A stretch of 32,000 nt of DNA from Candidatus Saccharimonadota bacterium (GCA_000503875.1 CP006913.1:240001-272000); one strand, 5' to 3'; counted from the stretch's first letter, positions 1,206 to 31,100 are shown. The notes: generated by a model from the letters alone, not told the origin. Program-made: numbers and translations.

Positions 1206-2114
1206 ATGATGATAATAGGAAATCAAGAAGCAAGAAATCGTCTTCAAACTTACTTAGAGCAGCATGCTGTTGCAAGCTCTGGGCAAGTGAGTTTTTTCCT
1301 GTTATATGGGCCTGCCAATATTGGCAAAGCTGCTATCGCACTCGAGCTTGCCCAGTCATATCTATGAATATATGCTCAATGATGACTTTTACATATCAAA
1401 GATATGTCAGCAATTCTCGGTAAAAAACATTCAATAAAAATCGCAGAAAAATCTGAAACAGAGGAATATAAAACATTATATGAAGAGCACCACTACCAAG
1501 ATTTATGAGTCAGAGAAATAAATAATTGGCTACAGCAATCAGCCTTCGGTTGATCAAAAATTCTTCTTATAGAAAATATTGAAAGAATGACTTCTGAAGC
1601 AACCAATGCTTTTCTCAAAGCTTGTGAAGAACCACTTCCAAATAGAGTTATTATCGCTACGACTTCCAATAAATCAAAAATATTGGAAACTATCCTTTCA
1701 AGAGCTATTTCGATTCCATTTTCTCCCTTATCAGAACAAGAAATGGAACAATATATCAAAGAAAAAAATATCCAGATACATTCTCCTGAGGTCAAGGAAT
1801 TGCTTATTATGATGGCAATGGGTAAGCCAGGAACATTAGAAAATTTCGCAGAGCAACTTGCCAAGGACGAAGAGCGACAAAACGATATTCAAAAACTGAT
1901 AAAAATACTTCCTTATCCATGAAAAATCGTAGAAAAATACAAAATCTTTGAAAAATTTAAAGAACAAGGAATTCTGGAACAGTTCTTAGACGGTTGGATT
2001 GCTTATTGTACACATCATCATATTAGTCACACCACCAACCGACTCAAAGTTAAAAGACTTTTCCAAGGAAATATATCAAAAGAAAACGTTATATTGTACG
2101 GCTTATTAGGATAA
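1206..2114 (+). CDS. holB: DNA polymerase III delta' subunit (clamp-loader AAA+)
   Basis: ATGATG at 1206. The frame passes through 6 TGA codons and joins tracked ORF 1587..1922. Motifs: LLYGPANIGKAA (P-loop), SKILLIENIERMTSEATNAFLKACEEP (NALLKtLEEP box) and ILSRA (SRC-like). TAA at 2112-2114. Confidence 0.85.
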
Positions 2115-2140: not shown

Positions 2141-2743
2141 ATGAATAATACAGTAATATATGAAAATTCTTTTAGAACGGATAATTTAATTGTATACGGA
2201 AATTCTGAAGAACTGAAAAAAATATTGTTAGAATTAGAAAAATTGATGTATTGATATAATTATGAAATCAACTTAGGTTTTGTAAAATTACCCGAGTGTT
2301 CTACGATAGCTCTTTGTAAAGATAAGCTAGAAACTATCTTTGTAGCTCAAAATCCGCATAAAGTATGGAGTAATACTGAAGGAAAATATGATTTAGAAGA
2401 AGAAAACAAAGAAATAATTCCAGCTTCAATATGAGAATTTTGGAAAAAATTTGATAACGGATTCAACGATAGAGGAGAATTTAAACAAGGAGAAAGACCA
2501 TCAGTTAATGAAACAGAAGAAAGAGATTGATTGTTACTTAGTGAAGAAAACGAAAAAAAATTATATCAATTGGTAGATCAGTATAAAACAATTGTCTCTT
2601 CTTTTATCTCTCCAGCATCAGAAGTTTATCATTATTTAGGATACAATACTATTCCTTGATATGAAACTCGACGAGGATATAGAATGATAATTGTTAATAA
2701 AGATAGAGATAGTATATTTATTTATTGATCATGATCAGATTAG
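2141..2743 (+). CDS. Hypothetical protein (200 aa), invisible in the standard-code track
   Basis: ATG 2141 to TAG 2741-2743 is open if 7 in-frame TGA codons are read as sense, with no TAA/TAG. Also contains two consecutive CGA codons (YET-CGA-CGA-GY). No recognisable family. Confidence 0.6.
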
Positions 2744-2771: not shown

Positions 2772-4763
2772 ATGAAAAAAATATTCTTTTTATTAATAGC
2801 AAGTATATGCATATCACCAGCATTCGCAAGCGAATGGAATTTACCTGGTATTGAAATTATTTCTCGTAAAGATCGATGAGCTGATGAATCAATCAGATAT
2901 ACCAAAATGTCCTATGCAGAACGTAAAGCACGATTAAAATCCAAAACAGAAGAGGAAATGAAAACATTGGAAGAGACAGATTTTGATGAATTTTTTGAAA
3001 AACAAAAAGCAGAATATGAACAAACAATGAGAAATGATTATTTACAATCAAATTTTCCAGAAGAACAAAAAGTTAATGATGTGGTTTATCAACTGGGAAA
3101 GAATTATCTCAAATGGCCACAAAGTTATCATTATGAAAAAAATAAAATTATAGTCCATCATACAGCTGGCGATACTTCATCATTTACTGGAAAAGAAAGT
3201 GTAATAGCATATCTAAAAGATGTTTATAAATTTCATACTATTACGAGAGGTTGGTGAGATATTGGTTATAATTTTTTGATTGATTCATACGGAAATATTT
3301 ATGAAGGAAGAGCTGGTGGTGATAATGTTATTTGAGCACATACTAATTGGAATAATACCCCAAGTGTAGGAATTTCTTTGATGGGAAATTTTGATATTCA
3401 AAAACCAACTCAAGAACAAATCAAAAGTTTGATTTCTCTGATTACTGCATTGAGTAAAAAATACAATATAGATCCTACTGCAAAAGCTGAATATCATAAA
3501 GTACTTACAGATATTCCTTATATGAAATCAGTTGAAGCTGGAACCGTTGCAGGTCATAGAGATGCAGGAGTAACATCTTGTCCAGGGAAAAATTTATATT
3601 CACTTCTTCCTGAAATAAAAACAATGGTAGTGAATACTATGGCAAAAGGAGTTTTGGTTAGTTCTTCTGAAATAATGAAGAGTATTCCAACGGCAAAAAC
3701 CAGCAAAACAGCCACAAAAAATACAGCAAAAGGATTGGATAATTTAAAAAAACGACAAGCAGCATATGATAAAATTTCACTAGCTCTTCAAAATACCTAT
3801 ATCAAAAAACATGGTACAAAAAAAGCAACAGTTTCTTCCAATAAAATTGCTTTTAAAATAAATAAAGATGAAGCTAAAAAATTATTGGATTCTGATATTT
3901 CCGTGTTATTATATGAATTATCAACAGCATTTATGCAACGGGATATTTCTTGTTCATCTACTTGTTTTTTTGTTACTCCATCATGAACTTACAAAGGAAC
4001 TTCAGCCAATATAGAAGTAGCCGAAGGTGGTTTACTTTTGCAGGTGGGATGAGAAAAATATACGGAGGAATCTATTAAAATTCAAGCAAAAGGAAACGAT
4101 CTTATCGAAATAAAAAATTATCCAAGAGTTTCTTATTTTAAAATACCTTGGAATACTTTTTATGGAAGTCTAACTTTTGAAAAATGACAACTTAAAAATC
4201 TCAAAACAGGAAAATTTGAAAAACAATATACTATAGTTAATACCTTATCTTTCCATAAATATCTCAAAGGAATTGTAGAAACAAATGATTCTGAAGATGC
4301 TGAAAAAATCAAAACAATGAATTTGATTTCAAAAGGATATGCATTATTTTATAAAAACTCGAAAAACAAACATCCATCAATTCCTGATGGTGCAAAATAT
4401 ACTGCTATAGATAGTCCAGAAATGTTTCAAAAATATGTAGGAGCTGGAGTAGAAAAAACATTAAAGACAGTACCTGCATTAGTAGATGAACAAAAAACTG
4501 AAGTCATTTTTTATGATAATTATCTTCCTATTTTACCATATTTTAATTGTTCACCAGGATTTACTCGATCAGCAAAAGATAAACGAGGATGGTCAGATAC
4601 GCCATATCTAGTATCGAGAATTGATATGGAAAAATGTACTGATTTTAATGGACATGGAGTATGACTCAGTGGAAAAGGAGCTCAATATTTTGCTAAACAA
4701 GGATGGACATATAAAGAGATTTTAGAATACTACTATCCAGGAATACAAATTTTAACATTGTAA
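2772..4763 (+). CDS. Secreted peptidoglycan hydrolase fusion: N-acetylmuramoyl-L-alanine amidase (PGRP/Amidase_2) plus SpoIID/LytB domain
   Basis: Signal peptide MKKIFFLLIASICISPAFA. Amidase motifs are ISRKD-W(CGA)-G(TGA)-ADES, HHTAG, GW-G(TGA)-DIGYNFLID and GHRD...TSCPG. C-terminal GHGV-G(TGA)-LSGKGAQYFAKQGWTYKEILEYYYPG is the SpoIID signature. It joins tracked ORFs 2907, 3378 and 4317, all in one frame. Confidence 0.88.
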
Positions 4764-4848
4764 TATGTAAGGAGGCGTTGTTTATGCGGCGTCTTTTTAT
4801 GTATATAGAACTGCCAATAAAAAGTTTTTATTATTAATAGATAATATT

Positions 4849-5712
4849 ATGAATTCGGTACTCTCTAAGCTGTTTATATGATCAAAACGTGAAGCGTTTG
4901 AAAATATTATGCATGCTTATCATCGTAAGGGATATGCAATAGTACATTATTTATATTTTGCAAATATTACAGGAAAAAAACTTTTTGATAATTATACTGT
5001 TTCGTTTGAAAAGGAGCAATTCAAAGAAGCATTAAAAGATGATTATAAAATTCTTTCAAAAGCTGTTATTTCTACAGCATATAAGCAAGCCTTATTGGAT
5101 GGGGATCTAGTTCTTCCTGATTGAATAGCATTACAAATCTTTTATCGAATGGCTTGGAAATTAAAAAAGCTAACAACCAAAAGACCTCGATTGGAAAATT
5201 TAAATGGAACAGATTTTACTATAGAATTTTTAGATTGGCTTTATGCTTCTGCAAATCCTGATAGTGTGCAATTAGTACTTTATGGAACTTATCCAGGTAT
5301 TTTAGAAAAAACAAAAAGTTTTCTTACCGAGAAAGGATATTATATTGCATATTCACAAGATTGATATACTAACTTTGATTGGGATCAACTTGATGAAATT
5401 ATGAAAAAAAACAAAAGAAAACATACTATTCTTATTATAGCAAGAACAACTCCAGAATATCCTATCCAAGAAATTTGGTCATGGAGTAATAAAGAAAAAA
5501 TTAAACAACGTAAATTAATTGTTTTTACTCAATGAGGAACTTTTGATTTTTGGGCAGGTATTCAAAAGAGAGCACCAAGGCTATGGAGAACTTATAAGTT
5601 AGAATGGTTATGGAGGTTAATTACCAATCCCAAAAGGAATTATAAAAAAGTTCTTGATTCAATTCTTATTATAAAGTACATTTTCTCTTATTTACTATTG
5701 AAAAACAAATAA
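4849..5712 (+). CDS. tagA: WecB/TagA/CpsF-family glycosyltransferase
   Basis: One frame joins ORFs 4909 and 5149 through TGA codons. Motifs: LPD-G(TGA)-IAL, NGTDF, P.QEIW, FTQ-G(TGA)-GTFDFWAGIQKRAPRLWRTYKLEWLWRLITNPKR (the family's vGg.fDf.aG...RAP.w....glEWlyRl..eP.R). Confidence 0.85.
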
Positions 5713-5722
5713 ATTTTTGTAC

Positions 5723-5755
5723 AACCACGATAAGAGATTTTCTTGTGGTTTTTTC
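5723..5755 (+). terminator. Rho-independent terminator after the tagA-like gene
   Basis: aaccac...gtggtt stem followed by tttt. Confidence 0.65.
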
Positions 5756-5784
5756 GTTGTTTTAATAGTAAACTTTTCTTACAT

Positions 5785-7851
5785 ATGCATGTTCTAGAAG
5801 AAAAGAAAATATATCAAGATACAGAAAGGTATATTGATACCCAACAACATTTACGTGATGGTATTCAATTTTCTTTGGTAGTAGAATTTCAATCAGAAAA
5901 ATTTGTAGAATATCAAAAAGATTTGCTTCAAGAATTTGTGGCAGATTTTGTAGATGGAATCACAGACACTGAAGAGCATGATAATGATGCAGTGAGAGCA
6001 AAATGTGAAACAGCACTTCAGGAATTAAATACAAAACTCAAAGCTTTTGCAGATAAAGTTCGTGATATAGAATATTTTCCTATCAAAGGATATATGCAAA
6101 TTATTCTTGGGACTACACTTATTTCTTCTATGATAGGAAATGCAACGGTTATGATTTTAAGAGATCGTAAAATTTATTATACGTTAACAAACTCTACAAA
6201 AGTAAAAGGAAAAATAGATTTGTTTTCTGAATTTATTGAAGGAGATTTAGAAAGTGGCGATGAGGTTATCTATATAGGAACAAGAATAACAGATGTTTTG
6301 GATGCATATGATGTAAAAGATATCGAACAAATCCTTCAATCAGAAGAATGAAGTATTATTGGATTTATGGATGAAGTATTAACATCAAGAATAGAAAAAG
6401 AAAATTTGGGATTTTTGATGGGATATACAATTCAATGAATGACAAGGAAATCACATATGAGCAAAAAAATATCACTAGATAATTTAACATCTAAATTTTG
6501 ATTTATTCAAGAATGGAAAGAAAAGTTTTTCAAAAATAAATATCAAGTAACTGTTGGTATACTCAGTCTATTTATAGCATTTATGCTCTATAGCTTAGTT
6601 ACCCAATTGCTCAAAAAACCACAAGGAGAAATATATATAAATCCTCAAGGAGTTACCGTTGATCTTACTATAGATGATATCAAAAAAGATATCGTATTGT
6701 TCAAATCTATGGATCCAACAGGTGATGAAAAAGCAATGAAATACCAGGAAATAGTTAATAAAATTACTATTTTAGAAAAAAGAGGAAGATGGATAGAAGA
6801 TCTTCAACAATTACAAAAAATTCTCAAAGCTGATTATTATAAAGGATTCAATATCATAACAGTAAATAATCTTTCTCAATTTGACGATCCAGTATTGGGA
6901 AGAAAAACAACATTGATGTCGTTCAATACAAGTGAAAAGTCTACACTCTGAGAATTAAGCAAAATAGAATATGCAAAAGATATTCTTATCGCATGATCAA
7001 AAGCAGCGTTGTTAGGTGTGGTCAACGAAAATAGTAGGGGATCATTAGTAAGTTATAATATTGATGATACAATAGAAAATTGTAGTTTAAATCTTTTGAG
7101 AAATGGGTTCTATTGTTATACTACAAACGGTAAAATTTACGTAATAGCTAGATCAGGAATAGAGTCAGTTACTACTGCAGATCCAGATGGATTTCCTATG
7201 TCAATATGAGGTATTGGAACGTATGGAAAATCAAATATGTATGTTTTTGCCAAAAATGTTACTAATTTAGCAGATAGTACATTGGTAGTAAGATACCGCA
7301 ATACATTATGATCTCAATCAATATACCAACAAGGACAAAAATATATGATGACTCCAGATGTAGCTACATGATTAAATTTTGGATCAGGATTTTCAACATT
7401 CACTATTGATGTAAATTTTCTATGATGGTCTCAGTGAAAGCTATATCAATTTCGAAGAAATCCAGCAACATCATTTAATCTAGCTTATCGTGAAATTAAA
7501 TTGTTGGGTGGTGATACAAAAACTATGAAATTATCTGATGATGTAAAAATCGTTACACCTTCAAATTCAAGATATGTATATTTGTTTGATAGAGTTAACC
7601 AAACATTTATGGTATACGAATCTCGTCCACTCAAAACAAATGATCAATATGCAACAAGTTATAATCTTTATTATTTGTTTAGTTTCGCTTTTGATCTAGG
7701 AAATAATAAAGTAGTAGATGTTACTATTCCAGATGAATTGTGAAATAGACCAGAATTATATGTATTGACTCAAGCTGGTATCAATAAAATTCAACTTCAT
7801 GAATTTGTTGATAGTATCAAAAACAATAACGTATTGAAACAAGTTAATTAA
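5785..7851 (+). CDS. Hypothetical single-pass membrane protein (688 aa)
   Basis: ATG 5785. One frame joins ORFs 5743, 6583, 7009 and 7501 through about 13 TGA codons, ending at TAA 7849-7851. A central TM segment (VTVGILSLFIAFMLYSLVTQLL) separates a roughly 230-aa N-terminal domain from a roughly 440-aa C-terminal domain. The N-terminal region faintly resembles a degenerate PP2C/SpoIIE fold (weak). Confidence 0.7.
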
Positions 7852-7869
7852 TATATTGATTTCTTCAAG

Positions 7870-7897
7870 AAGAGTGTCTCCGGGCACTCTTTTTTTA
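7870..7897 (+). terminator. Rho-independent terminator
   Basis: aagagtg-tctccggg-cactctt followed by ttttttt. Confidence 0.8.
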
Positions 7898-7901
7898 TTG
7901 C

Positions 7902-7931
7902 TTGACTTGTAAAATCAATACAAATTATTAT
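7902..7931 (+). promoter_or_regulatory. Putative sigma70-like promoter of alaS
   Basis: TTGACT (7902-7907), a 17-18 nt spacer, then an A/T-rich -10 (TTATTA/TATTAT). Confidence 0.35.
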
Positions 7932-7983
7932 ATATACGCCAAGAAAAAATCAGACTCTTTTATTTTATGTGAATTATTTTTGT

Positions 7984-9564
7984 ATGAAAACAATATCTTC
8001 ACAAGAACTTAGAAATCTACGAAATACATTTTGGGAATCTAAACAACACAAATATCTTAGCGAAGTTTCTCTTATTGCGGATAAGGAAAGTACAGCGATG
8101 TTTAATGTGGCGGGGATGCAACAATTGATTCCATATCTTATGGGTAAACCTCATGATCTAGGAAAGAGAGTATTTAATATTCAAAGATGTATTAGAACTG
8201 TTGATATAGATGAAGTAGGGGATGCTTCGCACCTGACATTTTTTGAAATGATGGGAAATCGATCACTCGGAGATTATTTCAAAAAAGAAGCAGTAGAACG
8301 AAGCCGAGAGTTTTTGACGAGCAAAGATTATTTAGCGATAGATCCAAAAAAGCTTGCAGTAACCGTATTTCAAGGAGATGAACATACACCAAAAGATGAA
8401 GAGACAGCGTCATATTGGAAGAATGTAGGTATGACCGAAGATAAAATTTCATATTTACCAGCAAAACATAATCGATGGAGCCCAGGACCAGTTTGACCAT
8501 GTGGCCCAGATACAGAAATATTTTATCGAGTAGGTGCGGGAGATTTGCCCCCTGTAGGAAGCAATGTAGAAAACGATGAAGATAACTGGATGGAAATTTG
8601 GAATAATGTATTTATGGAATTTTATCGTGATGAATCAGGTACGCTTACCAAATTGAAACAACAAAACGTAGATACCGGAATGGGATTTGAAAGAATGTGT
8701 AAAACATTGCAAAACAAAGAAACAGTTTACGAAAGTGATTTGTTTCAACCAATTATTGATGCTATTGCGATTTATACAAAACTTGCTTACAAAGATTATC
8801 AAAGAAGAATGAGAATTGTGGCGGATCATCTTAGAACTGCAATAGTTCTTATCAATGATGGAGGTTTTCCATCCAATGTAGGAGCTGGATATGTACTTAG
8901 AATGATTATTAGAAGAATGTATTATAATTTGATTTTGCTCAACGATTCGGTTAGTGATGGCTATGAATCATTATTTGACGAAATTATTGCTTTTGTAGGA
9001 ACTCAACGCAAACTTACAAATTCTTCTGCGATTTTCAAAGTGATCAAAGATGAACTCGCTCAATTCAAAAAAACGATAGCAAACGGAAATAAATTATTGC
9101 AACAGATGATAGATAAACATCCAGCTCAACTAGCAGGTAAAGATATATTTATGCTCTACGATACCTATGGATTCCCTGTTGAGCTTACCAGAGAAATTGC
9201 CAGTGAAAAAGGAATCAAACTTGACGAAACCGGCTTCCAGAAATCACTAGAAGAAGCTCGCGAGAAATCTCGTCAATGAACCAAAGAGATGTTTAAGAAA
9301 GGAACTGATTGGTCAAAATATTTAGATGGAGTAAAACCAACCAAATTTATTGGTTATGATCAAACAAATTCAGAGTCTCAGAAACTTATCAAAGATTTTG
9401 AGGTAGACGGACAAAGAGTTTTAATCTTTGATCAAACGCCTTTCTATGCAGAATCCTGAGGTCAAACCTGAGACAAAGGAAAAATTATTTTAGATGATGG
9501 AACTGAAGTAGAAGTAATTGATGTAAAAAAATATGAAGGAGTGTTTTTGCACTTGGTGAAATAA
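7984..9564 (+). CDS. alaS: Alanine--tRNA ligase, C-terminally short form (526 aa; no editing or C-Ala domain)
   Basis: Motifs: FFEMMGN-W(CGA)-SLGDYFKK, AVE-CGA-S-W(CGA)-EFLT, HN-CGA-WSPGPV-G(TGA)-PCGPDTEIFY, VDTGMGFERM, ADHLR, TPFYAES-G(TGA)-GQT-G(TGA)-DKG. The frame ends at TAA 9562-9564, inside the beta-barrel that precedes the editing core, and is followed by a strong terminator. Confidence 0.9.
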
Positions 9565-9593
9565 TTTATTGAAAAGAATATATTTTAATCTAT

Positions 9594-9621
9594 AAGCCCG
9601 CTGTGAAGCGCGGCTTTTTTA
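9594..9621 (+). terminator. Rho-independent terminator after alaS
   Basis: aagcccgc-tgtgaa-gcgcggctt (G+C-rich stem, one bulge) followed by tttttt. Confidence 0.8.
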
Positions 9622-9734
9622 TTAAATAGTTTTATATTTAATACTAATTATATCATAAAATAATCACTTGTAAATAATATTTTTAAGGATATGATTAACT
9701 CATAACGACGTGTTCTTTTTAATAAATAACCAAT

Positions 9735-11678
9735 ATGATCATGAAATTCTTTTCTAAATTTTCAATTTTTGGCTTGTTGGTTGTTTTTACTTTCTTTAGT
9801 TTTAGATTTGTCTCGGCCGCAACGACCCCATCTTTTGGTATGGCTGCGAGTTATGGTGTCCTTTCAAGTACGTACACCAATACATCAGTAACAACCATTA
9901 ATGGAGACGTAGGATTTACTACTGCACCAGCGGTTGCTCCATTGGGTATACATCCAAATTATTGAGTAGCTGCTCCCTATCCTCAAGCAGGTATAGATCA
10001 AGCTACTGCTTTAGTAGCATTATCAGCGCCTGCTCAACCATGTACATTTACATTTCCAGCTGGGGCAATAAATCTTGCTACAGATGTTACTCACGGAACC
10101 ATTTGAATATATGAACCTGGTGTATATTGTAGTTTGGGTGCAATGACAGTTGGTTGACCAATTAATCTCGACGGTGCAGGAACATATATTTTCAGATCAT
10201 TTCCAGCCGCACTTAACACGACAGTAGGTTCAGTTATTTCATTGAGCAACGGTGCATCAGCTTGTGATGTTTTTTGGATTTCAACAAATACAACACTTGC
10301 TGCAACCACAACATTTGTAGGAACAGTTATAGATAATTCTTTTATCACTGTGGGTGCAAATACTACGTGGTTGGGAAGAGCTTTATCATTTGGTTGAACA
10401 GTTACTACAGATACAGACACCATTACTGTACCAAATTGTGCCCCAGCTACCTTACATATTGTCAAACAAGTAATAAACGATAATGGAGGACTAGCAATTG
10501 CAAACGCATTCAATCTTCATGTTAGACGTGCAGGAATTGATGTTGTGGGAAGTCCAGCATTGGGAGCTGGATTACCAGGAACTTCATATACATTAAATCC
10601 AGGAACCTATGTAATAAGTGAAGATGCAAATCCAGCTTATGCACAAAGTTTTGCATGAGATTGTAATATATGAGGAAGTATTACGCTTGCTCCAGGTGAT
10701 GATAGAACATGTACAGTAACTAATAATGATATAGCAACACCATCAGGTGGTGGAGGATGATGAGTAACATTTCCAATAGATACTTGTCCAAATTGAGATG
10801 ATTCGCCAAGTTACTATGATTGAATATGTGTTTTATCTCCAACGATAGTCCATTCTTGAGTTGTTGTTCCTTTAATTGGTATTACAAAAGTACCAAGTCC
10901 ATTAGCTTTACCAGCATGATCAGGTTCAGTTATTTACAATTATACTGTTTGGAATGTAGGAGGAAAAATAGCACTAACTAATATTACTTTAAAAGACGAT
11001 AAATGTACTTCAATAAAATTTATTTCAGGTGATACAAATAATAATAAAAAAATTGATATAAACGAAAAATGGAAATATACATGTACAACAAACCTTTTGA
11101 AAACTACTACAAATACAGCAATTGCAAAAGGATATAGCGATGATAGTTATAATCAAGTATCTGTTGCTACCGCAATCGCAACAGTTGTTGTTGGCGCAGA
11201 TTTACCAGCACCACTTATTGATATTGTAAAAATACCTAGTCGTTTAACTCCATTTCCATTTGGAGGGGGAGATGTTGATTATACATATATTGTAACGAAT
11301 CCAGGTATTGTTTATATAAGTGATGTTACGGTTACCGATAATAAATGTAATCCAGTTTCTATTATTTGAGGAGATAACAATCGTAATCATCTTCTTGATG
11401 TTGATGAAACATGGACATACACGTGCAAAACAAAAGTTTCTGTTTCAACAAGAAATATCGCTACAGCAAAGGGTATTGCAAATTGATTTGCGGCTGTAGA
11501 TTATGCTTTTGCTGACGTACTTGTTTTTGTTCCTGGATTTCCAAAAACATGAGCAACAATTTATCAAAATCATACATTTAGAAATATATTAATAGTGTTT
11601 GGTATTCTATTAATTTCGACAGGATTTATGGTGATATCTAAAAGACGTAATATTCAATCAAACGATTTATCAAAATAG
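9735..11678 (+). CDS. Sortase-anchored surface protein: DUF3494 (ice-binding-like) domain, prealbumin/Cna-B-like domain, 2x DUF11-type repeats, FPKTG sorting signal
   Basis: Signal peptide MIMKFFSKFSIFGLLVVFTFFSFRFVSA. AASYGVLSSTYTNTSVTTINGDVGFTTAP is the DUF3494 N-terminal signature. ATLHIVKQVINDNGG...PGTYVISE...CTVTNND is the prealbumin-like fold. The C-terminus is FPKT-G(TGA 11550-11552), then a hydrophobic stretch, then KRR. About 17 in-frame TGA codons; TAG at 11676-11678. Confidence 0.82.
10860..11525 (+). repeat. Two tandem DUF11-like domain repeats inside the adhesin (protein level)
   Basis: Repeat 1 is ITKVPSP..GSVIYNYTVWNVGG..LTNITLKDDKCTSIKFISGDTNNNKKIDINEKWKYTCTT. Repeat 2 is IVKIPSR..GDVDYTYIVTNPG..ISDVTVTDNKCNPVSIIGGDNNRNHLLDVDETWTYTCKT. 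Confidence 0.75.
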
Positions 11679-11685
11679 TAATACG

Positions 11686-12303
11686 ATGAAACAAAAAATC
11701 TGATCAAGATATATATTGTTTTTCTTTAGTACTATGGGGTTTTTCTTACTTTCAATAATAGTTTCTTTTTGGGATTTTGACAATGATGAAATACAAAATG
11801 AATCTAAAGAATTTCCAATAGTACAACAAATTCCAAAGGAAGTACCAGAAATTTTGGTAAGAAATCCAAATGAAATTCGTTTGGAAATTCCCAGTATCTA
11901 CGTTGATGCTGCTGTTATATCTGTTGGATTGACAAAAGATGGCATAATGGATTCTCCAAATAATGGAGATGATGTTTGATTATTTACATTAGGGAAACGT
12001 CCTGGTGAAAATTGAACCGCTGTTATAGCTGGGCATTATTGAATATGGAAAGATGGAACGATATCTGTTTTTCATGATATTAATACATTAAAAAAATGAG
12101 ATAAACTTCATATAGGAGACGGAAAATGATGAAGCGTATCTTTTGTTGTTCGTGAAAGTAAAATATATGACCCAAATGAAGGTGTTTCAGAAGTATTCTT
12201 ATCAAATGATGGGAAATCACACCTCAACCTTATTACTTGTATCTTAGATAAAAAAACAAAACAATATTCTAAGCGTTTAGTCGTATTTACTGACAAAATA
12301 TAA
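11686..12303 (+). CDS. Sortase (class E/F-like transpeptidase)
   Basis: N-terminal TM segment. Motifs: PGEN-G-TAVIAGH (catalytic His), HLNLITC (catalytic Cys), KRLVVF (Arg). Starts 8 nt after the FPKTG protein. Six or more in-frame TGA codons. Confidence 0.85.
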
Positions 12304-12304
12304 T

Positions 12305-12613
12305 CTATTTTGTTTCTTCCAAAATTATTCTTTTTGAGAATCCTCATCTTTTTTCATATTTTTCAATTCTGATTTTTTCTATTTCTTCTTTTGAAATTCA
12401 ATGAAAATCTCCTATTGCATAGACAACTTCCAAAATATCAGCTAGTTCTTCAGCCACATTGGTTCAAGAAAAGAGCTCTTTTCCTTCTTCATAAAATTTA
12501 TTTTCTAATCTTTGTTTATATTCCTGATCACCAGCAATATGAGTGATAGCTTGCTCTCAATTACTTTCAATAATTGCTGGAATATTGTCTCTAACGAGTT
12601 TATCGTGGTGCAT
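12305..12613 (-). CDS. MazG-like nucleoside triphosphate pyrophosphohydrolase (small KLVRD..IP family)
   Basis: Minus-strand frame MHHDKLVRDNIPAIIESN-G-EQ...EELADILEVVYAIGDFH-G-ISKEEIEKIRIEKYEKR-G-GFSKRIILEE. It matches the all-alpha NTP-PPase/MazG-like 'house-cleaning' family. Four TGA codons; stop TAG at 12305-12307. Confidence 0.75.
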
Positions 12614-12641
12614 AAGGGAAAAAATAAAGTAAAACAATCAA

Positions 12642-13835
12642 TTATTCTAAAGCTTTGAGTAAATCTTCTTTTTTATCATCTCGATTGTTTTCTAAAATTT
12701 TAGGGACTGGTATTTTATCTAATCATAAATCTTCTTCATAAAGATAATGTTTGAAATTTTCTGCATTTATACATCCAGTAATATTTTGTCGCATCCACAA
12801 TTCTTCACTTCATTGTCAAAATCAGATTTTTCCTTCTTCTTTTTGTCAAAATTCTTTAAACTGTTCTATGAGTTTATTTTGTGTGTCTTTTGATCGTCAT
12901 AATGCATTGCCTTTACTTTCTACTTGATGAGTAAAATTTTCTAAAGTAAGACTGTAAATTGAAATATGTTGTAAATATTCAGGACGAAAAATTTCTGGTA
13001 AATCAAAATTAAATTCAAATCCATAAAAAATATAAGGCAAAACCCATTCTATTATAGTAAAAGCTTTTTCTGTATCTAATTTTTTGATGTTTTTATTTAA
13101 GGCAGCTATTACTCAGTCTTGAAGTCTTTTTAAATCGATCTTACTAGATGTTGCACTATAAAAAGCAATCAGCATAGCTTCATTATTTCGATTCCAACCG
13201 CCAACTAAATCAGCAAGAATTGCGTCTATGTTAAGAGAGTTATCTTCATTAACATATTTTTTTGCAGATTCCTGATAATTGTTTTTAACTGTTTCTATAT
13301 ACTTACCTCGTTCTTGTTCTTCCCAAGTTAATCCTTTTTTACATACATTATTAATCGTTGTTATAATATTTGTTGTATCGATATTTACTTCTATGCTGTG
13401 AGCATTTTCTATTTCTTCAAGTAAAGATTTAAGCTCAATGTAGAAATCTTTTTCATATACTTCAGAATTTTTATTTCAAAGAAAGTACATCTCTTCAAAT
13501 TGTTTAATTAATTTAATTAAAGATGATTTAAGTATATATTTTAATTCTGATTTTGGTACTTCTGACAAAAAAGAAATAATTTCATCTATATATTTAAGAT
13601 AAGAAAATCTTTTATTGATTGTAGATAAACGTGAGAAAATGAATTTATCTAGATCAAAATTTCCATCATCATTGACTATATTATTTCGGTTAATTGCTTT
13701 TGGATAATGTGCTCTACATTTTTGATCAAATATCTTATTCCAATTTATTTGTCTTCCTAGTTTTCCATAAGGGAAAATTTCTTTTTGATCAAAAATAATT
13801 TCTTTTTTTTCTAAAGGTGAAGGAAAATTATTCAT
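12642..13835 (-). CDS. Hypothetical protein (397 aa), upstream of and co-oriented with the MazG-like gene
   Basis: Extends tracked ORF 13476..13835 through TGA codons to TAA at 12642-12644 with no TAA/TAG. Contains about 6 CGA codons. No recognisable domain, signal peptide or TM segment. Confidence 0.65.
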
Positions 13836-13837
13836 AA

Positions 13838-13869
13838 GAAAAAATGTTAAGAATAAATCAATATTCTTA
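13838..13869 (-). terminator. Putative terminator after the DUF333 gene
   Basis: 8-bp hairpin taagaata/tattctta (13848-13869). On the minus strand it is followed by TTTTTT, 3 nt before the ATG of the next gene. Confidence 0.45.
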
Positions 13870-13893
13870 TATATAAATATATAAAAAAGTCAA
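13866..13893 (-). promoter_or_regulatory. Putative promoter for the 397-aa gene
   Basis: Minus strand: TTGACT (13893-13888), 16 nt, TATAAG (13871-13866). Overlaps the terminator hairpin arm. Confidence 0.3.
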
Positions 13894-13912
13894 TAGATGT
13901 TATTGATAAAAA

Positions 13913-14389
13913 TTATTCAGCTTCTCCATTTCCTGCGCTTGGATTTGGATCGTAAGGATTTGGACATTCACCATCAAGATTTGCTTGTGCATTACAAAGT
14001 GTTCCATCAATTCTTTTACACATAGGGGTATCAGTTCCAACTCCTTCTACTTCACCACCAGTAATTGCACAATATATTTCTGCGTCATTTTCATATCCAG
14101 TAACTTTCATTCCTCCAATAGGACAATCCCCACGTAAGAAAGCCCATTCTTCACATTGACGATTATCTTCAAAAAGACAAACGCCATATTCGCCCTTTTT
14201 ATTTTTTCTTGTTTCTAGTATTCCTCATTTTTCAAGACAATTTGTTGAAGCTGGATTTGCTATACCAGTTTGTTCTTGTAGGGGTGTGTTTTTAATTTCG
14301 AAATTAAACCAATCGGTTTTTGTATTAACAAATTTTAAACTGGCTAATACAATAATGGTAATAATTACTGTCCAGAAAGTTTTTTTCAT
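13913..14389 (-). CDS. DUF333-domain (putative hemolysin-like) secreted or anchored protein
   Basis: MKKTFWTVIITIIVLASL signal/anchor. NPASTNCLEK-G(TGA)-GILETRKNKKGEYGVCLFEDNRQCEEWAFLRGDCP is the DUF333 signature. A Cys-rich acidic tail follows. Extends tracked ORF 13913..14110. Confidence 0.72.
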
Positions 14390-14414
14390 AAACATGTGTT
14401 TAGAAAATAAAGGA

Positions 14415-14735
14415 TTAGGTGCTCTTCTTCAGTATTTTTATTTTTCTTATTCCAAAAAACAATGATACTAAAATAATTATTTTTATTAGATAATGTCAGT
14501 GTATATCAACGATATCTTTCGTCATAGGAGTTATATTTCCTACGAGAAAATGTACGATAACTGCGATAGGTAATGTTAAAAAAACTCGATTTAATCTTGG
14601 AACAATAATTCTTATTTTTTTAAATAGTCTGGATAACAATGGAGCTAGCAAGTACATTCATCCAAAGGCAACAACAAGATCAAAAATAGCATATCCACCA
14701 ACGCGAAATTGTCTAAGAAATTCTATTACATTCAT
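14415..14735 (-). CDS. Small membrane protein (106 aa)
   Basis: MNVIEFLRQFRVGGYAIFDLVVAFG-G-MYLLAPLL... with three hydrophobic segments. Two TGA codons. Lies 25 nt upstream of the DUF333 gene start and is absent from the standard-code track. Confidence 0.55.
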
Positions 14736-14808
14736 ATGATATATTTCAAAGTAAATATATAACTCTTCTATAATCATCCCCAAAAGCAATACAAGAAATA
14801 TATTCAAA

Positions 14809-14837
14809 ATAAAAAAAACGCTCAAATAATGAGCGTT
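14809..14837 (-). terminator. Rho-independent terminator
   Basis: Perfect 8-bp hairpin aacgctca-aataa-tgagcgtt. On the minus strand it is followed by an 8-nt T run, downstream of CDS 14865..15434. Confidence 0.8.
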
Positions 14838-14864
14838 AAATATAATGAATGAGATCTATTTTAC

Positions 14865-15434
14865 CTAGTGTTGAATTTGGCTCCTACGTAGTATATAACC
14901 AATGAGAAGTCCAAATAAAATAAGTAAGGAATAGATAACGATAGGAACGATGCTAGGAAAATATTGACTAATAAATATCCCAGTAAATAAGGCAGAACCT
15001 ATAAATATTACATTATTGGTTTTTTTGTTTTTCTTTCTCCAGAATAATCCAAAGAGAAATGCAACAATATAACAGATAGGTGTTTCCCAAGCGGTTTTTG
15101 GTATACCAATAGGGATAGAAACACTATCTTCTTCTATTTTATCGTTTTTCTTTATAAGATAAAACGATGTAGCATATCCCTGTTTTTTAAATCCCCATTT
15201 GTCATAAGAATGATCAGAGCATTCCTTAAGTTGGCTACTACCTTTATTCCAGGCCTCTACAACATTTTTACCATTATGTTTGCTAAATAATTCTTCAGAT
15301 ATTTCTATTTTCTCGATTTTTTTAACTAAGAAAATACCTTCATCTGTTTTTAGCACACCAAATTCTTCTTTATCCTGTGCAAATAAAGTACAAGATAAGA
15401 TAAGCATAAAGCTAATTGTTAATAGTGTTTTCAT
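14865..15434 (-). CDS. Hypothetical membrane protein with signal peptide (possible lipoprotein)
   Basis: Intact ORF. MKTLLTISFMLILSC (lipobox-like ILSC), then a soluble domain of about 110 aa and 2-3 C-terminal TM segments. Confidence 0.7.
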   Translation of the reverse strand: MKTLLTISFMLILSCTLFAQDKEEFGVLKTDEGIFLVKKIEKIEISEELFSKHNGKNVVEAWNKGSSQLKECSDHSYDKWGFKKQGYATSFYLIKKNDKIEEDSVSIPIGIPKTAWETPICYIVAFLFGLFWRKKNKKTNNVIFIGSALFTGIFISQYFPSIVPIVIYSLLILFGLLIGYILRRSQIQH

Positions 15435-15542
15435 CTTTATATATATTTTGGTTATTTTTTTTGTTTTTATTAATATAATTTATTATATCAATTAAGACTT
15501 TAAAGTCAATATAATTACAAAAAATGCGATATAAAAATTCTC

Positions 15543-15571
15543 TTGCATTTGCTCAAATATTTTCTATATAT
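15543..15571 (+). promoter_or_regulatory. Putative promoter of the DUF134 gene
   Basis: TTGCAT (15543-15548), 16-17 nt, TATATA/ATATAT. A second perfect TATAAT lies at 15587-15592. Confidence 0.35.
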
Positions 15572-15584
15572 GGGAATATTCCCA
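15571..15584. promoter_or_regulatory. Perfect 14-bp palindrome, candidate operator
   Basis: TGGGAATATTCCCA lies between or over the candidate -10 boxes, 21 nt upstream of the DUF134 start codon. Confidence 0.45.
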
Positions 15585-15604
15585 TTTATAATTAATTATA
15601 GTCA

Positions 15605-15895
15605 ATGACGCCATGTTCAGAAAAGGGGAGGAAGAAGAAGATTAGATGCATCGACTTCGCTCCTGATGCCTGTGTCTTCCTCCCCACTGGATGCTGTGGC
15701 ACCAACGGAGAAATTACGCTTGCTAAGGATGAAGTCGAGACACTGAGACTCAAAAATATAGAGGGATTAGATATTGTAGCTGGTGGTGAAAAAATGCAAA
15801 TCTCGAAATCTACCTTCGCAAGAATTTATGAAAGTTGTGTAGATAAAATTGCCGACGCGATTGTCCATGGGAAAAGAATTGTGTTAGAAAAGTAA
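15605..15895 (+). CDS. DUF134 (UPF0251) family putative DNA-binding protein
   Basis: KKIRCIDFAPDACVFLP.G......ITLAKDEVETLRLKNIEGLDIVAGGEKMQISKSTFARIYESCVDKIADAIVHGKRIVLE matches the DUF134 pattern (l..dE.EalRL.D.egl.q.eaA..M.vSr.Tf.ri...Ar.Kia.al..Gk.i.i). Confidence 0.75.
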   Translation: MTPCSEKGRKKKIRCIDFAPDACVFLPTGCCGTNGEITLAKDEVETLRLKNIEGLDIVAGGEKMQISKSTFARIYESCVDKIADAIVHGKRIVLEK

Positions 15896-15949
15896 CTTGA
15901 CCATTAAAAGTATAATCAGAATTATTTTAATTTATTATCAAAAAAGCCC

Positions 15950-16687
15950 ATGAAATACCTCATATGAGCCAATTTTAAAATGTACAAAAGTCATAAAGAT
16001 TTACAGGAATATTTTGATCAGTTTGTAAATAATTATGCCTGTTTTGTAAATATTGACCTGATGATTGCACCAATGACCGTGTGTTTGGGAACCGCTTCAG
16101 AAATGACCAAAGACAGTTGCGTGCATCTTGGGGCTCAGAATATGCATTACGAAGATCAGGGGGCATATACCGGAGAAACTTCGCCATTGATTCTTAAGGA
16201 ACTTGGTGCTGAGTACGTGATTATCGGACATTCAGAAAGAAGACAATATTTCGGCGAAACCAACCAGATGATCAATAAAAAGCTCAAATCAGCTTTGCAA
16301 CACGGTATTAGACCAATTCTTTGTATCGGAGAAAACCTCGAGCAAAAAGAACTTGGTATCAGCAAAGAAACCTTGAAAATCCAATTACGCGAGGCATTAC
16401 AGGGAATTGATACTCTTGATCAGATAGATGTTGCCTACGAACCTGTGCGAGCAATCGGAACTGGGAAAAGCGCGACTCCAGAAGAGGTCCAAGATATTCA
16501 TGAGTATATTAGATCAGTTCTTGGAAACGAAAAAAGCAGAATTATCTATGGCGGAAGTGTAAATGACACCAACGCAGACATCTTGATCGCTCAACCTGCA
16601 GTCAACGGCTTCCTTATCGGCTCTGCCAGCCTCGATCCTCAAAAATTCCTAAAGATCTTGGATGTGGTATCTAAGAAAAATAAATAA
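15950..16687 (+). CDS. tpiA: Triosephosphate isomerase
   Basis: True start is MKYLI-G(TGA)-ANFKMY, upstream of the tracked ORF. Motifs: GAYTGETSP, IIGHSERR, AYEPV-W(CGA 16448-16450)-AIGTG, IYGGSV. Confidence 0.93.
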
Positions 16688-16692
16688 ACCAA

Positions 16693-16905
16693 ATCTATCA
16701 AGGTCGATAGCACAGCGAAGTATTGTAAACCTTAAGTGAAAATGGAAGACTATGTTGTTAGCCATAGGGAGCCCTGGGACTGTTGGTGGGTGTTTGGCTT
16801 GTCTTATTGGGAGTGATATGGAAAAATATCTGATGAGAGCGCTGCTAGCGACTAGACCTTTTTGGTTACTTTTTGGGGCAATGCTAAAAAGTAACATAGA
16901 AAAAT
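16693..16905 (+). repeat. Structured intergenic element, copy A (candidate cis-regulatory RNA or ncRNA)
   Basis: It shares with copy B a 5' box, ATCTA..AAGG.CGATAGC(A/G)CAGCGAAGTA (16693-16722). It also shares a 3' hairpin, TTTTTGGTTACTTTTTG-loop-AAAAAGTAACAT (16859-16897; 10-bp stem 16865-16874/16886-16895). The core is G+C-rich. The 5' box can pair with CGCUGCUAGCGACU (16839-16852). Confidence 0.55.
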
Positions 16906-16933
16906 TAATTTTAACTTATTACTATAATCTACA

Positions 16934-18295
16934 ATGATAACTTCAACAAACCCATACACGCAAGAAACTACAAAAACCTATGAACAAATGTCCCGAGACG
17001 AGGTAGAATCCAAAATCAACCAAGCCCACCAAGCATTCTGAAAACGGAAAAAAACATCTTTCGCAGAAAGAAAAACATATATGAATAATTTTGCAAAATT
17101 AATGCAAGACCAATTCGAAGACCTAGCAAAACTAGATACCCAAGAAATGGGAATGCTTTATAAAGATGCAAAAGGAGACGTGACAAAATCAGCTTCTAAT
17201 ATCGGTTATTTTGCAGAAAATGCAGAAAAAATTCTCGCACCAAAACCATTTGATCAAGATGGTCTCAAAGGAGAAATTGTTTATCAACCCAAAGGAGTTA
17301 TTTTCTCTGTGATGCCATGGAATTATCCATTTAATCAAGTCTTGAGAAGCGCAATTCCAAATATTATGGCAGGGAATGTCGTATTGATGAAACACGCATC
17401 CAATGTCCCTCAAGTTGCCGAAAAAATCGAACAATTGTTTGCACAAGCAGGCTTTCCGAAGGGTGTATATACCAACCTTTTTCTTCCTCACGAATTTACC
17501 GAAAAAATTATCGCTCATCCTTTGGTAATTGGAGCAAATGTTACTGGTTCTGATGCTGTGGGGAGACAGATTGGTTCGCTAGCTGGAAAATACCTCAAAC
17601 CTTCTGTGCTTGAACTTGGAGGAAACGATCCCTTTATTGTTTTAGAAACAAACGATCTTGATGCTATTGTTAAACAAGCAATTAAAGGCAGATTTTCAAA
17701 CTATGGTCAGAAGTGTAATTCATCGAAAAGATTTATAGTCATCGAATCGATGTACGACGCGTTTTGCGAGAAATTTACTGCAGCAGTTAACGAGTTCACC
17801 ATAGGTGACCCGATGAATGAGGCAACAGATATCGGACCGTTGGCAAAAGCTTCCGCTGTCAAAGATATCGATGCCCAGGTACAAGCAAGTATCCAGCAAT
17901 GAGCCATCCTTTTGACAGGCGGAAAACCTTGATCAACCTTCGGACCAAATTTCTACTTGCCAACGGTCCTCAAAGATGTGGTTCCTGGTATGAAAGTCTT
18001 CGACGAAGAAGTCTTCGGTCCTGTTGCTCCTATAAGCAAAGCCAAAGATATTGAAGAAATTATTCACCTAGCAAACCAAAGTATCTATGGGCTTTGATGT
18101 TCAATTTTCTGAGATAACAAAGAAGACAAAGAATATATTGCACAACAGGTAGAAGTTAGTAATGCATTTATTGATAAAGTAGTGACAAGCTATGCCTTCC
18201 TTCCTTACGGAGGAATCAAAAATACCGGATATGGAAAAGAATTATCAGAACACGGACTGAAGGTATTTATGAATGAAAAAGTGATTGTAAAGTAG
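16934..18295 (+). CDS. NAD(P)+-dependent aldehyde dehydrogenase (succinate-semialdehyde dehydrogenase-like, YneI/GabD type)
   Basis: MITSTNPYTQE...AF-G(TGA)-K-W(CGG 17045-17047)-KK..ERK. Motifs: MPWNYPFNQV, ELGGNDPFIV (catalytic Glu), GQKCNSSKRFIV (catalytic Cys), EEVFGPV, PYGGIKNTGYGKE. It joins tracked ORF 17081 and runs through TGA codons to TAG at 18293-18295. Confidence 0.9.
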
Positions 18296-18843: not shown

Positions 18844-19242
18844 ATGAAAAACAAAGATGTTATTTCCTTCTTTTTAGGATGGGATGATGTTGAAAAGAGA
18901 TACGCTGAAGGTATTTGTATTGAAACCTCTTCTCTTAAATATCTTATTGAAAAAGGCAAATTATTTGCGAAAAATCTTGAAGATTTGCCAAAAGTCATGG
19001 AAGGAGAAGCTATTGTTATTCCTGAGGGAATAATAGAAGGAAAAGTTATGGTATGTATTTTTACAGAAACACCTATTCCCCAAAAATGGCTATCATCAAG
19101 AGATCTTTTTGATGCAAATAAAGCTCTAATGAATCCCGAAATTCTCGAAAACCCAGAAAGAAAAAATATAGAATTTTCTTTTGAGCTTCGAGAAGAAGAG
19201 GTAGAGGTTTTAGAAGAAAAAGTAGTGGTGATTGTATTCTAA
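18844..19242 (+). CDS. Hypothetical small acidic protein, paralog 2
   Basis: Intact ORF. LEDLPKV...KVMVCIFTETPIPQKW...IEFSFELREEEVEVLEEKVVVIV aligns with paralog 1. Confidence 0.7.
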   Translation: MKNKDVISFFLGWDDVEKRYAEGICIETSSLKYLIEKGKLFAKNLEDLPKVMEGEAIVIPEGIIEGKVMVCIFTETPIPQKWLSSRDLFDANKALMNPEILENPERKNIEFSFELREEEVEVLEEKVVVIVF

Positions 19243-23576: not shown

Positions 23577-24653
23577 TTATTCTTTTGCCATGGTCTCTTG
23601 AAGAAGTCTAGTTTGATTTTCAAGGACCATTTTTTCCATAATATCATCAAGATCTCCTGTCAAGACAACAGGTATGTTTGACCAAGATTCGTGAATACGA
23701 TGATCAGTTATTCTATCTTGAGGAAAGTTATATGTTCTGATTTTTTCTGATCTATCTCCTGTTCCAATCTGGTTTCATCTCAATGTTTTTTCTTTTTCCA
23801 TTTTTTTATCTAATTCAATCTGATATAATCTGGATTTCAATACAGAAAACGCTTTTTCTTTATTTTGTAGTTGGGATTTGCTATCTCCAATATTTACAAT
23901 CAATCAACTTGGGTTATGATGAATTCTAACTCCTGTTTGATTCTTATTGGCATTTTGTCATCCAGCAGAAGAAGCTGCATATGTTTCCATTTGAATATCT
24001 TTTGGATCAATAACGATATCTACGTCTTCTGCTTCAGGCATAATAGCAACGGTTACGGTCGAAGTATGAACCCTTCCTTGTGATTCTGTAGCAGGAATTC
24101 TTTGAACTCTATGAACTCCACTTTCAAATTTCATAAGAGAGTAGACTTTATTACCAGAAATTTTTACAGTAACATCTTTAATTCATCAAATATCAGAAAG
24201 TTGTTCATCTACAATTTCTGTTTTCCAACCTTTTCTTGTTGCATATCAAAGGTACATTTTCAAAAGTTCTGTAGCGAAAAGTCCAGCTTCATCACCTCAA
24301 GCTGCAGGTCTAATTTCTAAATAAATATCTTTATCATCATTTGGATCCGTCGGCAAAAGAGCAATCTTGATACGTTTATCAAGGTCTTCAAGCTGAATTT
24401 CAGCGTTTTCTAATTCTTCTTGAGCCATAGCTAGCATATCTTCATCTGTCTCATTTGTAAGTATATCTTTGGCCTCAGTTACTTGGCCAGCATATTTTCT
24501 ATAAGAAACAGCAAGATCATATACTTCTTTCAGGTTTGAAAGTTCTTTGTTGATAGCAATATATGATTTCATGTCATTCATAGCAGCAGGATCCATAGCT
24601 TGTTCCTGTAGTTGAAGATATTTTTTTTCTATAGTTTGTAATTTATTTAACAT
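23577..24653 (-). CDS. prfA: Peptide chain release factor 1
   Basis: PAA-G(TGA)-[19 protein letters not shown] carries the PxT tripeptide of RF1, not the SPF of RF2. SSAG-G(TGA 23958-23960)-QNANK is the GGQ motif. [22 protein letters not shown] follows. Five in-frame TGA codons; TAA at 23577-23579. Confidence 0.95.
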
Positions 24654-31065: not shown

Positions 31066-31100
31066 AAGATATATATATTCTAAGTGCTAAAAGCTAAGAG

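Follow-up and report, generated by a model that had tools for sequence, protein, structure and literature searches.

Sequence evidence for CGA and CGG as tryptophan codons in a genome segment of the SR1 bacterium RAAC1_SR1_1

The window analyzed here, a stretch of 32,000 nucleotides from the genome RAAC1_SR1_1 (GCA_000503875.1, CP006913.1:240001-272000), is best read with a genetic code in which UGA would be glycine, CGA and CGG tryptophan, and arginine encoded by AGA, AGG, CGU, and CGC only, and a probability of about 0.9 is assigned to this reading. CGA is, as judged by three sequence tests (columns of distant homologues, columns of alanyl-tRNA synthetases [AlaRS] from candidate division SR1, and exchange of orthologous codons), a tryptophan codon in this genome, and CGG should be synonymous with TGG, on thinner evidence than that for CGA. 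That both codons encode tryptophan in this lineage and in this genome is already known. It was reported in 2021 for the Absconditabacteria, on top of UGA as glycine (Shulgina & Eddy, eLife 2021 10:e71402, PMC8629427), and it was treated as established by a 2026 paper in Nucleic Acids Research. The preliminary description of the window had referred to a screen of the Absconditabacterales; this is the 2021 study, and its source table lists this very genome with UGA as Gly, CGA as Trp, and CGG as “?”. Small additions are made here: an orthologous-codon test that is independent of Pfam, support for CGG as a tryptophan codon in the genus, and a catalogue of two tRNA families together with their synteny.

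Codon usage and gene set of the window

The closed genome RAAC1_SR1_1 has been described with a guanine-plus-cytosine (GC) content of 0.31, 37 tRNAs, and UGA as a glycine codon (Kantor et al. 2013); the GC content of the window is 31%. Affiliation with the Absconditabacterales (candidate division SR1) follows from exact GenBank matches to RAAC1_SR1_1 proteins, namely triosephosphate isomerase (TPI; AHB41064.1), EF-G (AHB41068.1), and a hypothetical protein of 189 amino acids (AHB41061.1), all encoded on a contig of 1,177,760 bp, and from the published listing under o__Absconditabacterales. Long open reading frames (ORFs) emerge in the window only when TGA is treated as a sense codon. The ORF set contained 161 TGA, 39 CGA, 2 CGG, and 91 TGG codons in frame, in addition to 187 AGA, 16 AGG, 42 CGT, and 9 CGC codons. 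The TGA columns of AlaRS were occupied by G in distant homologues, and TGA exchanged with GGN codons in the codon alignment with relatives, which bears out the proposed assignment of UGA to glycine.

Two doubtful ORFs were left out, and the resulting gene set comprised 26 genes, 15 of them with at least one CGA or CGG and 40 such codons in total (38 CGA and 2 CGG; Table 1). If the reassignment holds, these would account for 40 of the 127 Trp-type codons, or about 31%. The preliminary description had expected a changed sequence for nearly every protein, which is too much for 15 of 26 genes. The six codons on which it was based, five CGA (2874, 8260, 8305, 8473, and 16448) and one CGG (17045), were all found at these positions.

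Exchange of CGA and CGG with TGG in SR1 relatives

The window genes were compared codon by codon with nine SR1 loci, the AlaRS identity of which to that of the window ranged from 91% down to 54%. The window CGA codons, with 110 aligned cells, faced CGA or CGG in 62 cells, TGG in 33, TTY or TAY in 6, and an arginine codon in none. The 7 aligned cells of the window CGG codons contained CGA or CGG (3), TGG (2), and TAC (2), again without an arginine codon. Conversely, the 196 cells aligned to window TGG codons were composed of 98 TGG, 64 CGA or CGG, 3 arginine codons, and 31 others, and CGG was among the codons of the relatives at these sites. The 557 cells aligned to AGA, AGG, CGT, or CGC contained neither CGA or CGG nor TGG, and they were mostly arginine codons plus some for lysine.

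Counted per site instead of per cell, TGG was present in at least one relative at 15 of the 20 comparable CGA/CGG sites and an arginine codon at 0 of 20, while neither TGG nor CGA or CGG appeared in relatives at any of the 134 arginine-codon sites (Fisher test for TGG at 15/20 versus 0/134, p=6e-17; a second site-level Fisher value was p=2.5e-15). CGA or CGG was found in a relative at 26 of 35 window TGG sites. The co-occurrence with TGG at CGA/CGG sites is far beyond chance.

A similar picture was obtained from protein sequences. The 120 closest AlaRS, all of the SR1 type and 55 to 98% identical, had been translated by their depositors with CGA as arginine. Their six CGA columns and six TGG columns looked alike, both being a mixture of R and W with some Y and without lysine, and the 18 AGA, CGT, or CGC columns contained R and K and no tryptophan. 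A mixture of R and W in CGA columns as well as in TGG columns would arise if CGA or CGG codons had been mistranslated to the “R” of these columns. The R/K columns free of tryptophan, the 557 aligned cells, and the conserved motifs cited in the preliminary description, which use AGA, AGG, and CGT only, agree in that AGA, AGG, CGU, and CGC are still arginine codons. For CGG, the result is weak with n=2, although both codons were consistent with tryptophan and neither was aligned to an arginine codon.

Tryptophan columns in distant homologues

The set of distant AlaRS consisted of 78 non-SR1 sequences (Treponema, Clostridia, other Patescibacteria, and others) among at least 80 matched loci; the underlying profile scan had 2 SR1 loci among the matches listed. 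In the six CGA columns of these 78 sequences, R occurred in 0 of 468 cells. The search pattern for the second of these columns (8260) permitted R or W, and W was nevertheless present in 78 of 78 sequences. A Codetta-style inference, as had been proposed to check the assignment, was performed for the six columns and gave the highest log-likelihood (lnL) to W (−8.5), followed by F (−14.4), Y (−17.7), and, far lower, R (−31.0). The controls in the same alignment were correctly assigned, TGG to W, AGA to R, and TGA as well as GGA to G.

Outside AlaRS, the four distinct PDB entries for TPI among the matches listed, 7RGC not counted, all had W in the CGA column (16448). The CGG column of aldehyde dehydrogenase (ALDH; 17045) was Y or W across the PDB homologues, and the CGA column of the same protein was variable. 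The PDB alignments of the amidase and of TagA were not informative, with the CGA sites either falling into gaps or lying beyond the domains covered by the alignment, and the remaining window genes had too few homologues in the 80 AlaRS loci to be used. The aromatic character claimed for the cited columns of TPI, AlaRS (8260, 8305, and 8473), and ALDH was thus confirmed. Two statements need to be restricted. The “canonical” WGADE of the amidase (2874) held within SR1 only, where three of six orthologues used TGG and the other three CGA, and the claim that every conserved column is aromatic does not extend to the mixed D/W column at AlaRS 8527 or to a few variable CGA sites. With the distant homologues and the codon comparison pointing in the same direction, the reading of CGA and CGG as tryptophan is supported.

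tRNAs with the anticodons UCG and CCG in relatives

For GCA_000503875.1, the published table counts one tRNA each with the anticodon UCG, CCG, GCG, and CCA, and none with ACG (PMC8629427). The supplements of the 2026 Nucleic Acids Research paper contained no SR1 tRNA sequences, and the search in the AlaRS neighborhoods of the relatives yielded tRNA-Trp(CCA) and tRNA-Leu only. Three near-identical tRNA-Trp(CCA) genes with A1:U72 and G73 were identified (L086, 16750-16821; L088, 16776-16847; L091, 19283-19354). The search pattern required the anticodon YCG together with an acceptor end of the Trp type and the bases common to all tRNAs. A CCA version of this pattern, used on the loci already collected, returned exactly the three known tRNA-Trp(CCA) genes. 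Viral contigs contained no match to the SR1 tRNA-Trp, and an earlier, looser YCG pattern likewise detected no Trp-like tRNA there. The final pattern had 68 matches in the metagenome collection, and 61 of these resided on low-GC contigs with long ORFs only if TGA is a sense codon, a property not demanded by the pattern.

Two tRNA families were present. The UCG family carries the loop CUUCGGA with G37 and the D-arm GUGU/AAUGGUA/ACAC, and the CCG family the loop CUCCGAA. Neither family has A20 in any variant because the base following G18-G19 is always U or C. A20 is an arginine identity element (Shulgina & Eddy, eLife 2021, PMC8629427). On one contig (L154), a tRNA-Arg(GCG) with A20 is located 70 bases downstream of tRNA(UCG). 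The cloverleaf was paired to 98%, with compensatory changes on both sides in 14 of 21 pairs, and the YCG tRNAs are therefore maintained genes rather than decaying copies.

The gene order around both families was kept across many SR1-type contigs (L092-L159), with FtsW, a hypothetical protein designated F0, and tRNA(UCG) in the one case and a small membrane protein designated F3, tRNA(CCG), and endonuclease III in the other. In the flanking genes, CGA and CGG exchanged with TGG, and no arginine codon was among the ten commonest partners of either CGA or CGG. One tRNA(CCG) (L093) shares a contig of 126,447 bp with an AlaRS of SR1 that has 57% identity to the window AlaRS, and FtsW next to tRNA(UCG) on two contigs (L112 and L149) is identical to NCBI proteins named Absconditabacterales or candidate division SR1. 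In a comparison with annotated phage tRNAs, 19 annotated records matched the CCG family; 9 of them were closest as tRNA-Trp, and none was a tRNA-Arg. The UCG family gave mixed partial matches, and its best full-length match was a tRNA-Trp(CCA) identical to it over the first 25 bases. A change from CCA to CCG requires a single base.

These data may be combined into a model of decoding. CGA and CGG would be read by a dedicated tRNA(UCG) and a dedicated tRNA(CCG), which are seen in the relatives and are likely to exist in RAAC1_SR1_1 as well. Both should have a tRNA-Trp-like acceptor end (A1:U72 and G73) and lack A20, the main determinant for arginyl-tRNA synthetase (ArgRS), and CGU and CGC would be left to a normal tRNA-Arg(GCG) with A20. 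Charging may be done by tryptophanyl-tRNA synthetase (TrpRS) despite anticodon positions 34 and 36 that differ from those of CCA, and U34 of tRNA(UCG) may be modified such that CGU and CGC are not read. The origin could be a codon capture in a low-GC genome in which CGA and CGG had become rare. If both tRNAs descended from tRNA-Trp, TrpRS of this lineage must have ceased to read positions 34 and 36. The combined statement that CGG is tryptophan in RAAC1_SR1_1 and its genus, that both tRNAs originated from tRNA-Trp, that TrpRS no longer reads positions 34 and 36, and that the deposited SR1 proteins, including the structure PDB 7RGC, are unintended Trp-to-Arg mutants has about even odds.

Further tRNAs were noted during these searches. 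The three tRNA-Trp(CCA) genes are situated a few kilobases from AlaRS and near recJ, and the AlaRS of these loci is about 56% identical to that of the window. An ordinary-looking tRNA-Trp with the anticodon CCG is encoded on a contig with 63% GC and TGA as stop (L119, 2653-2725; also on L099), directly downstream of EF-Tu and a Thr-Tyr-Gly-Thr tRNA cluster, which is the usual place of tRNA-Trp; either a sequencing variant or a genuine gene may be behind it. A Trp-like tRNA(CCG) without recoding of UGA occurs on a contig with 27% GC and TGA as stop (L135, 2934-3007), which may come from one of the Bacillota lineages reported to read CGG as Trp.

Evaluation of opposing data and of other explanations

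Several observations weigh against the proposed code or limit its reach. Half of the CGA/CGG codons (20 of 40) belong to lineage-specific genes that had no orthologue among the compared loci, and a few of the compared sites are variable, such as AlaRS 8527 with D in 35 of 78 distant sequences or 2931, which is aligned to AAT, ATC, and TGA. The window scan found no tRNA genes in the window. On a RAAC1-like contig from a 96%-identical relative (L161), the gene after FtsW encodes a cation ATPase and no tRNA is present at this site, and a profile search with F0 found 12 proteins, none of them from RAAC1. A1:U72, G2-G4, and G73 were imposed by the search pattern and are not independent observations. 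Moreover, in two phage-like arrays (L098 and L127; 9 tRNAs in <4.6 kb on contigs that are not recoded), A1:U72 and G73 occur on a tRNA-Arg(ACG) with A20, so that these bases alone are not specific for tryptophan. The tRNA(UCG) of these two arrays likewise has the A1:U72/G73 acceptor end plus A20.

CGG is the part of the code with the smallest basis, two codons in the window. CGA could be tryptophan while CGG in the genus UBA5124, which includes RAAC1, is unassigned, arginine, or ambiguous, and the two CGG of the window are tolerated rarities. This is unlikely, albeit the most serious of the competing explanations. In its favor, the Codetta result for CGG was “?” for this genome and “Arg” for its sister species (PMC8629427), at about 1.4 to 1.6 CGG per 10,000 codons (about 1.4 in the sister species). 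On the other side, both sites look like tryptophan sites: that at 3939 is aligned to two TGG, two CGA, and two TAC codons, and that at 17045 to CGA in the 91%-identity relative (L002) and to Y or W in the PDB ALDHs. CGG is also used by relatives at window TGG sites, wobble pairing would in any case allow a tRNA(UCG) to read CGG, and a tRNA(CCG) is listed for the genome.

Since tryptophan at CGA and CGG is deduced here from sequence alone, both codons may be decoded ambiguously, with Trp inserted in some copies and Arg in others if, for instance, ArgRS still charges part of the tRNA, and only experiments can settle such an ambiguity (Shulgina & Eddy 2021, PMC8629427). Ambiguous decoding is nevertheless improbable. 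The YCG tRNAs of the relatives are without A20, CGA is located at invariant tryptophan positions of essential enzymes (loop 6 of TPI; the AlaRS column with W in 78 of 78), where a large fraction of arginine should be costly, and CGA and CGG constitute 40 of the 127 Trp-type codons.

An assignment of CGA and CGG to Phe or Tyr might be suggested by the F/Y-rich CGA columns of distant AlaRS at residues 13 and 108. A comparable admixture of F and Y exists in the window TGG columns at residues 17 and 202, the exchange with TGG in 35 cells exceeds that with TTY or TAY in 8 cells, the log-likelihood of W is 5.9 units above that of F, and the YCG tRNAs resemble tRNA-Trp. This assignment can be rejected as very improbable. 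The standard code with CGA and CGG as arginine, under which the tryptophan matches would be coincidence or lineage-specific changes from W to R, is used in GenBank, UniRef, and PDB 7RGC. It is refuted at the sequence level by the absence of R from the 468 cells of distant homologues, an lnL of R that is 22 units below that of W, the lack of any exchange of CGA or CGG with another arginine codon in 674 aligned cells compared to 99 exchanges with TGG, and the missing lysine in every CGA column of the 120 SR1 AlaRS, which leaves it a negligible chance. An equally negligible chance remains for C-to-U RNA editing at the first codon base, which would explain CGG as tryptophan without a new tRNA (CGG to UGG) but would convert CGA into UGA and thus glycine, while the columns show W, F, or Y, the four residues with the best fit do not include G, and the lineage has dedicated tRNA(UCG) and tRNA(CCG) genes.

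Comparison with known codes

The code proposed here for RAAC1_SR1_1 agrees with that published for the Absconditabacteria in organism, codons, meaning, and tRNA set (GCG, UCG, CCG, and CCA, without ACG; Shulgina & Eddy). Nothing essential is different. CGG remained uninferred for this genome in that study, and the two CGG of the window point to tryptophan; the published assignment was derived from Pfam columns, to which the exchange of orthologous codons and the tRNA families with their synteny are added here. NCBI translation table 25 (SR1 / Gracilibacteria) shares UGA as glycine with the window, although its assignment of CGA and CGG to arginine is contradicted, and UGA is not the only changed codon. 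The table 25 code, with UGA as glycine in SR1 and Gracilibacteria, is said to stem from Campbell and coworkers in 2013.

CGG alone has been reassigned to Trp in Anaerococcus and RFN20 Bacilli (Onthovivens) and to Gln in Peptacetobacter, likewise in low-GC genomes with capture of a rare CGN codon and a tRNA(CCG) that has features of tRNA-Trp. These bacteria have no tRNA(UCG), and CGA is kept as an arginine codon by means of tRNA(ICG). In contrast, CGA is the main reassigned codon of the window (38 CGA versus 2 CGG), and the genome possesses tRNA(UCG) and no tRNA(ACG) according to the published table. The low-GC sister order BD1-5 (Gracilibacteria) shares UGA as glycine, tRNA(CCG), and, in some genomes, an inferred CGG as Trp. 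It differs by the absence of tRNA(UCG) and by a CGA frequency of about 1 to 2 per 10,000, with CGA inferred as Arg or “?”.

Consequences for deposited proteins

Bacterial sense-codon reassignments are very rare, which gives the phenomenon its importance. The remaining value of the tryptophan assignment is a practical one, the annotation of public proteins. Table 25 is still assigned to this order by current pipelines, and deposited SR1 proteins carry R at CGA and CGG sites for this reason. Translation as arginine affects 40 residues in 15 of the 26 genes of the window, including the loop-6 tryptophan of TPI and invariant tryptophans of AlaRS. The same error reaches structure predictions, family alignments, and the heterologous expression of SR1 genes.

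PDB 7RGC is the TPI of the window (15950-16687), identical over all 245 residues and with Arg in the motif EPV-R-AIGTG, the loop-6 motif that otherwise reads invariantly EPVWAIGTG. The CGA position is presumably that of the tryptophan in the N-terminal hinge of the catalytic loop 6, three residues past the catalytic glutamate. The crystallized protein is probably an unintended Trp-to-Arg variant of the native TPI, and structural or kinetic conclusions drawn from 7RGC, which was solved with Arg at this position, would therefore describe a mutant.

Positions of the codons and other genes of the window

The CGA and CGG codons of the gene set are listed in Table 1 together with the release factor 1 gene, which is part of the context of UGA as glycine.

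Table 1. CGA and CGG codons of the window and the release factor 1 gene. “Relatives” are orthologous codons in up to nine SR1 loci, with the number of loci in parentheses; “distant” are residues in the 78 non-SR1 AlaRS; “SR1” are residues in the 120 closest AlaRS as deposited.
Feature	Position	Strand	Observation
CGA, DNA pol III delta'-like gene, C-terminal part	1875..1877	+	Relatives CGA, CTT; uninformative, no Arg codon
CGA, DNA pol III delta'-like gene	2040..2042	+	Relatives CGA (2)
Two adjacent CGA, hypothetical protein 2141-2743	2669..2674	+	No orthologue among compared loci
CGA, amidase (SRKD-CGA-TGA-ADE)	2874..2876	+	Six SR1 relatives: CGA (3), TGG (3)
CGA, amidase, variable position	2931..2933	+	Relatives TGG, AAT, ATC, TGA, ATC; no Arg codon
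CGA, amidase	3753..3755	+	Relatives TGG, CGA, CGA, GAA, AAG
CGG, amidase	3939..3941	+	Relatives TGG (2), CGA (2), TAC (2); no Arg codon
CGA, amidase (SpoIID-like part)	4566..4568	+	Relatives CGA (3), TGG (2), TAT
CGA, amidase (DK-CGA-GWSD)	4584..4586	+	Relatives CGA (5), TGG (1)
CGA, WecG/TagA glycosyltransferase	5146..5148	+	Relatives CGA (2), TTT (3), TTC, TCT; aromatic column
CGA, WecG/TagA glycosyltransferase	5188..5190	+	Relatives CGA (5), TGG, AAA
CGA, hypothetical protein 5743-7851	7453..7455	+	Relatives CGA (6), TGG (2)
CGA, AlaRS residue 13	8020..8022	+	Distant Y54 F21 W2 I1; SR1 R65/W54; relatives CGA (5), TGG (4)
CGA, AlaRS residue 93 (MMGN-CGA-SLGDYF)	8260..8262	+	Distant W78; SR1 R62/W58; relatives only CGA, CGG, TGG
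CGA, AlaRS residue 106	8299..8301	+	Distant W26 M19 F18 Y15; relatives only CGA, CGG, TGG
CGA, AlaRS residue 108	8305..8307	+	Distant F35 Y30 W8; SR1 W48 R47 Y25; relatives TGG (6), CGA (2), TAT
CGA, AlaRS residue 164 (HN-CGA-W)	8473..8475	+	Distant W72 F6; relatives CGA (7), TGG (2)
CGA, AlaRS residue 182	8527..8529	+	Distant D35 W29 F5 I4; SR1 R90/W29; relatives CGA (7), TGG (2)
Seven CGA (12681, 12789, 12894, 13188, 13308, 13686, 13950), hypothetical protein 12642-13967	12681..13952	-	No orthologue among compared loci
CGA, small membrane protein	14586..14588	-	No orthologue among compared loci
CGA, TPI loop-6 motif (YEPV-CGA-AIGTG)	16448..16450	+	W in non-self PDB TPIs; R in PDB 7RGC
CGA, ALDH residue 21, variable column	16994..16996	+	TGG in 91%-identity relative L002; P/A in PDB homologues
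CGG, ALDH residue 38 (AFGK-CGG-KK)	17045..17047	+	Y or W in PDB homologues; CGA in L002
CGA, hypothetical protein 18844-19242	19189..19191	+	No orthologue among compared loci
CGA, hypothetical protein 21828-23573	23421..23423	+	No orthologue among compared loci
Release factor 1 gene	23577..24653	-	Pfam PCRF/RF-1 on matching L001 gene
Two CGA (25796, 27242), SBP_bac_5-like protein	25796..27244	-	No orthologue among compared loci
Four CGA (28874, 28907, 29123, 29267), T4SS-pilin-domain protein	28874..29269	-	No orthologue among compared loci
Two CGA (30274, 30637), membrane protein 30058-31065	30274..30639	-	No orthologue among compared loci

The AlaRS of the window (7984-9564) has only 526 amino acids and stops after the tRNA-recognition and beta-barrel region; both the editing and the C-Ala domain are missing. 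A length of about 515 to 570 amino acids is also typical of most of its 120 closest SR1 homologues. An extra, fragmented AlaRS copy in the RAAC1 genome was mentioned by Kantor et al. (2013). EF-G (19559-21661) is complete, with GTP_EFTU, EFG_III, EFG_IV, and EFG_C, and is encoded by a solitary gene outside any rpsL-rpsG-fusA-tuf operon; its name in GenBank is “hypothetical protein P148_SR1C00001G0261.”

A type IV secretion system (T4SS)-like block is located at 27974-31874. Its genes code for a protein of 694 amino acids that carries a T4SS-pilin/TrbC domain at the C terminus, for a membrane protein, and for a putative VirB4-like ATPase, of which only the C-terminal part lies inside the window and the remainder beyond its end. 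At 9735-12303, the gene of a large surface protein, the orthologue of which on L001 has Ice_binding and SpaA-like matches, precedes that of a sortase. This arrangement points to a surface or pilus protein anchored by sortase.

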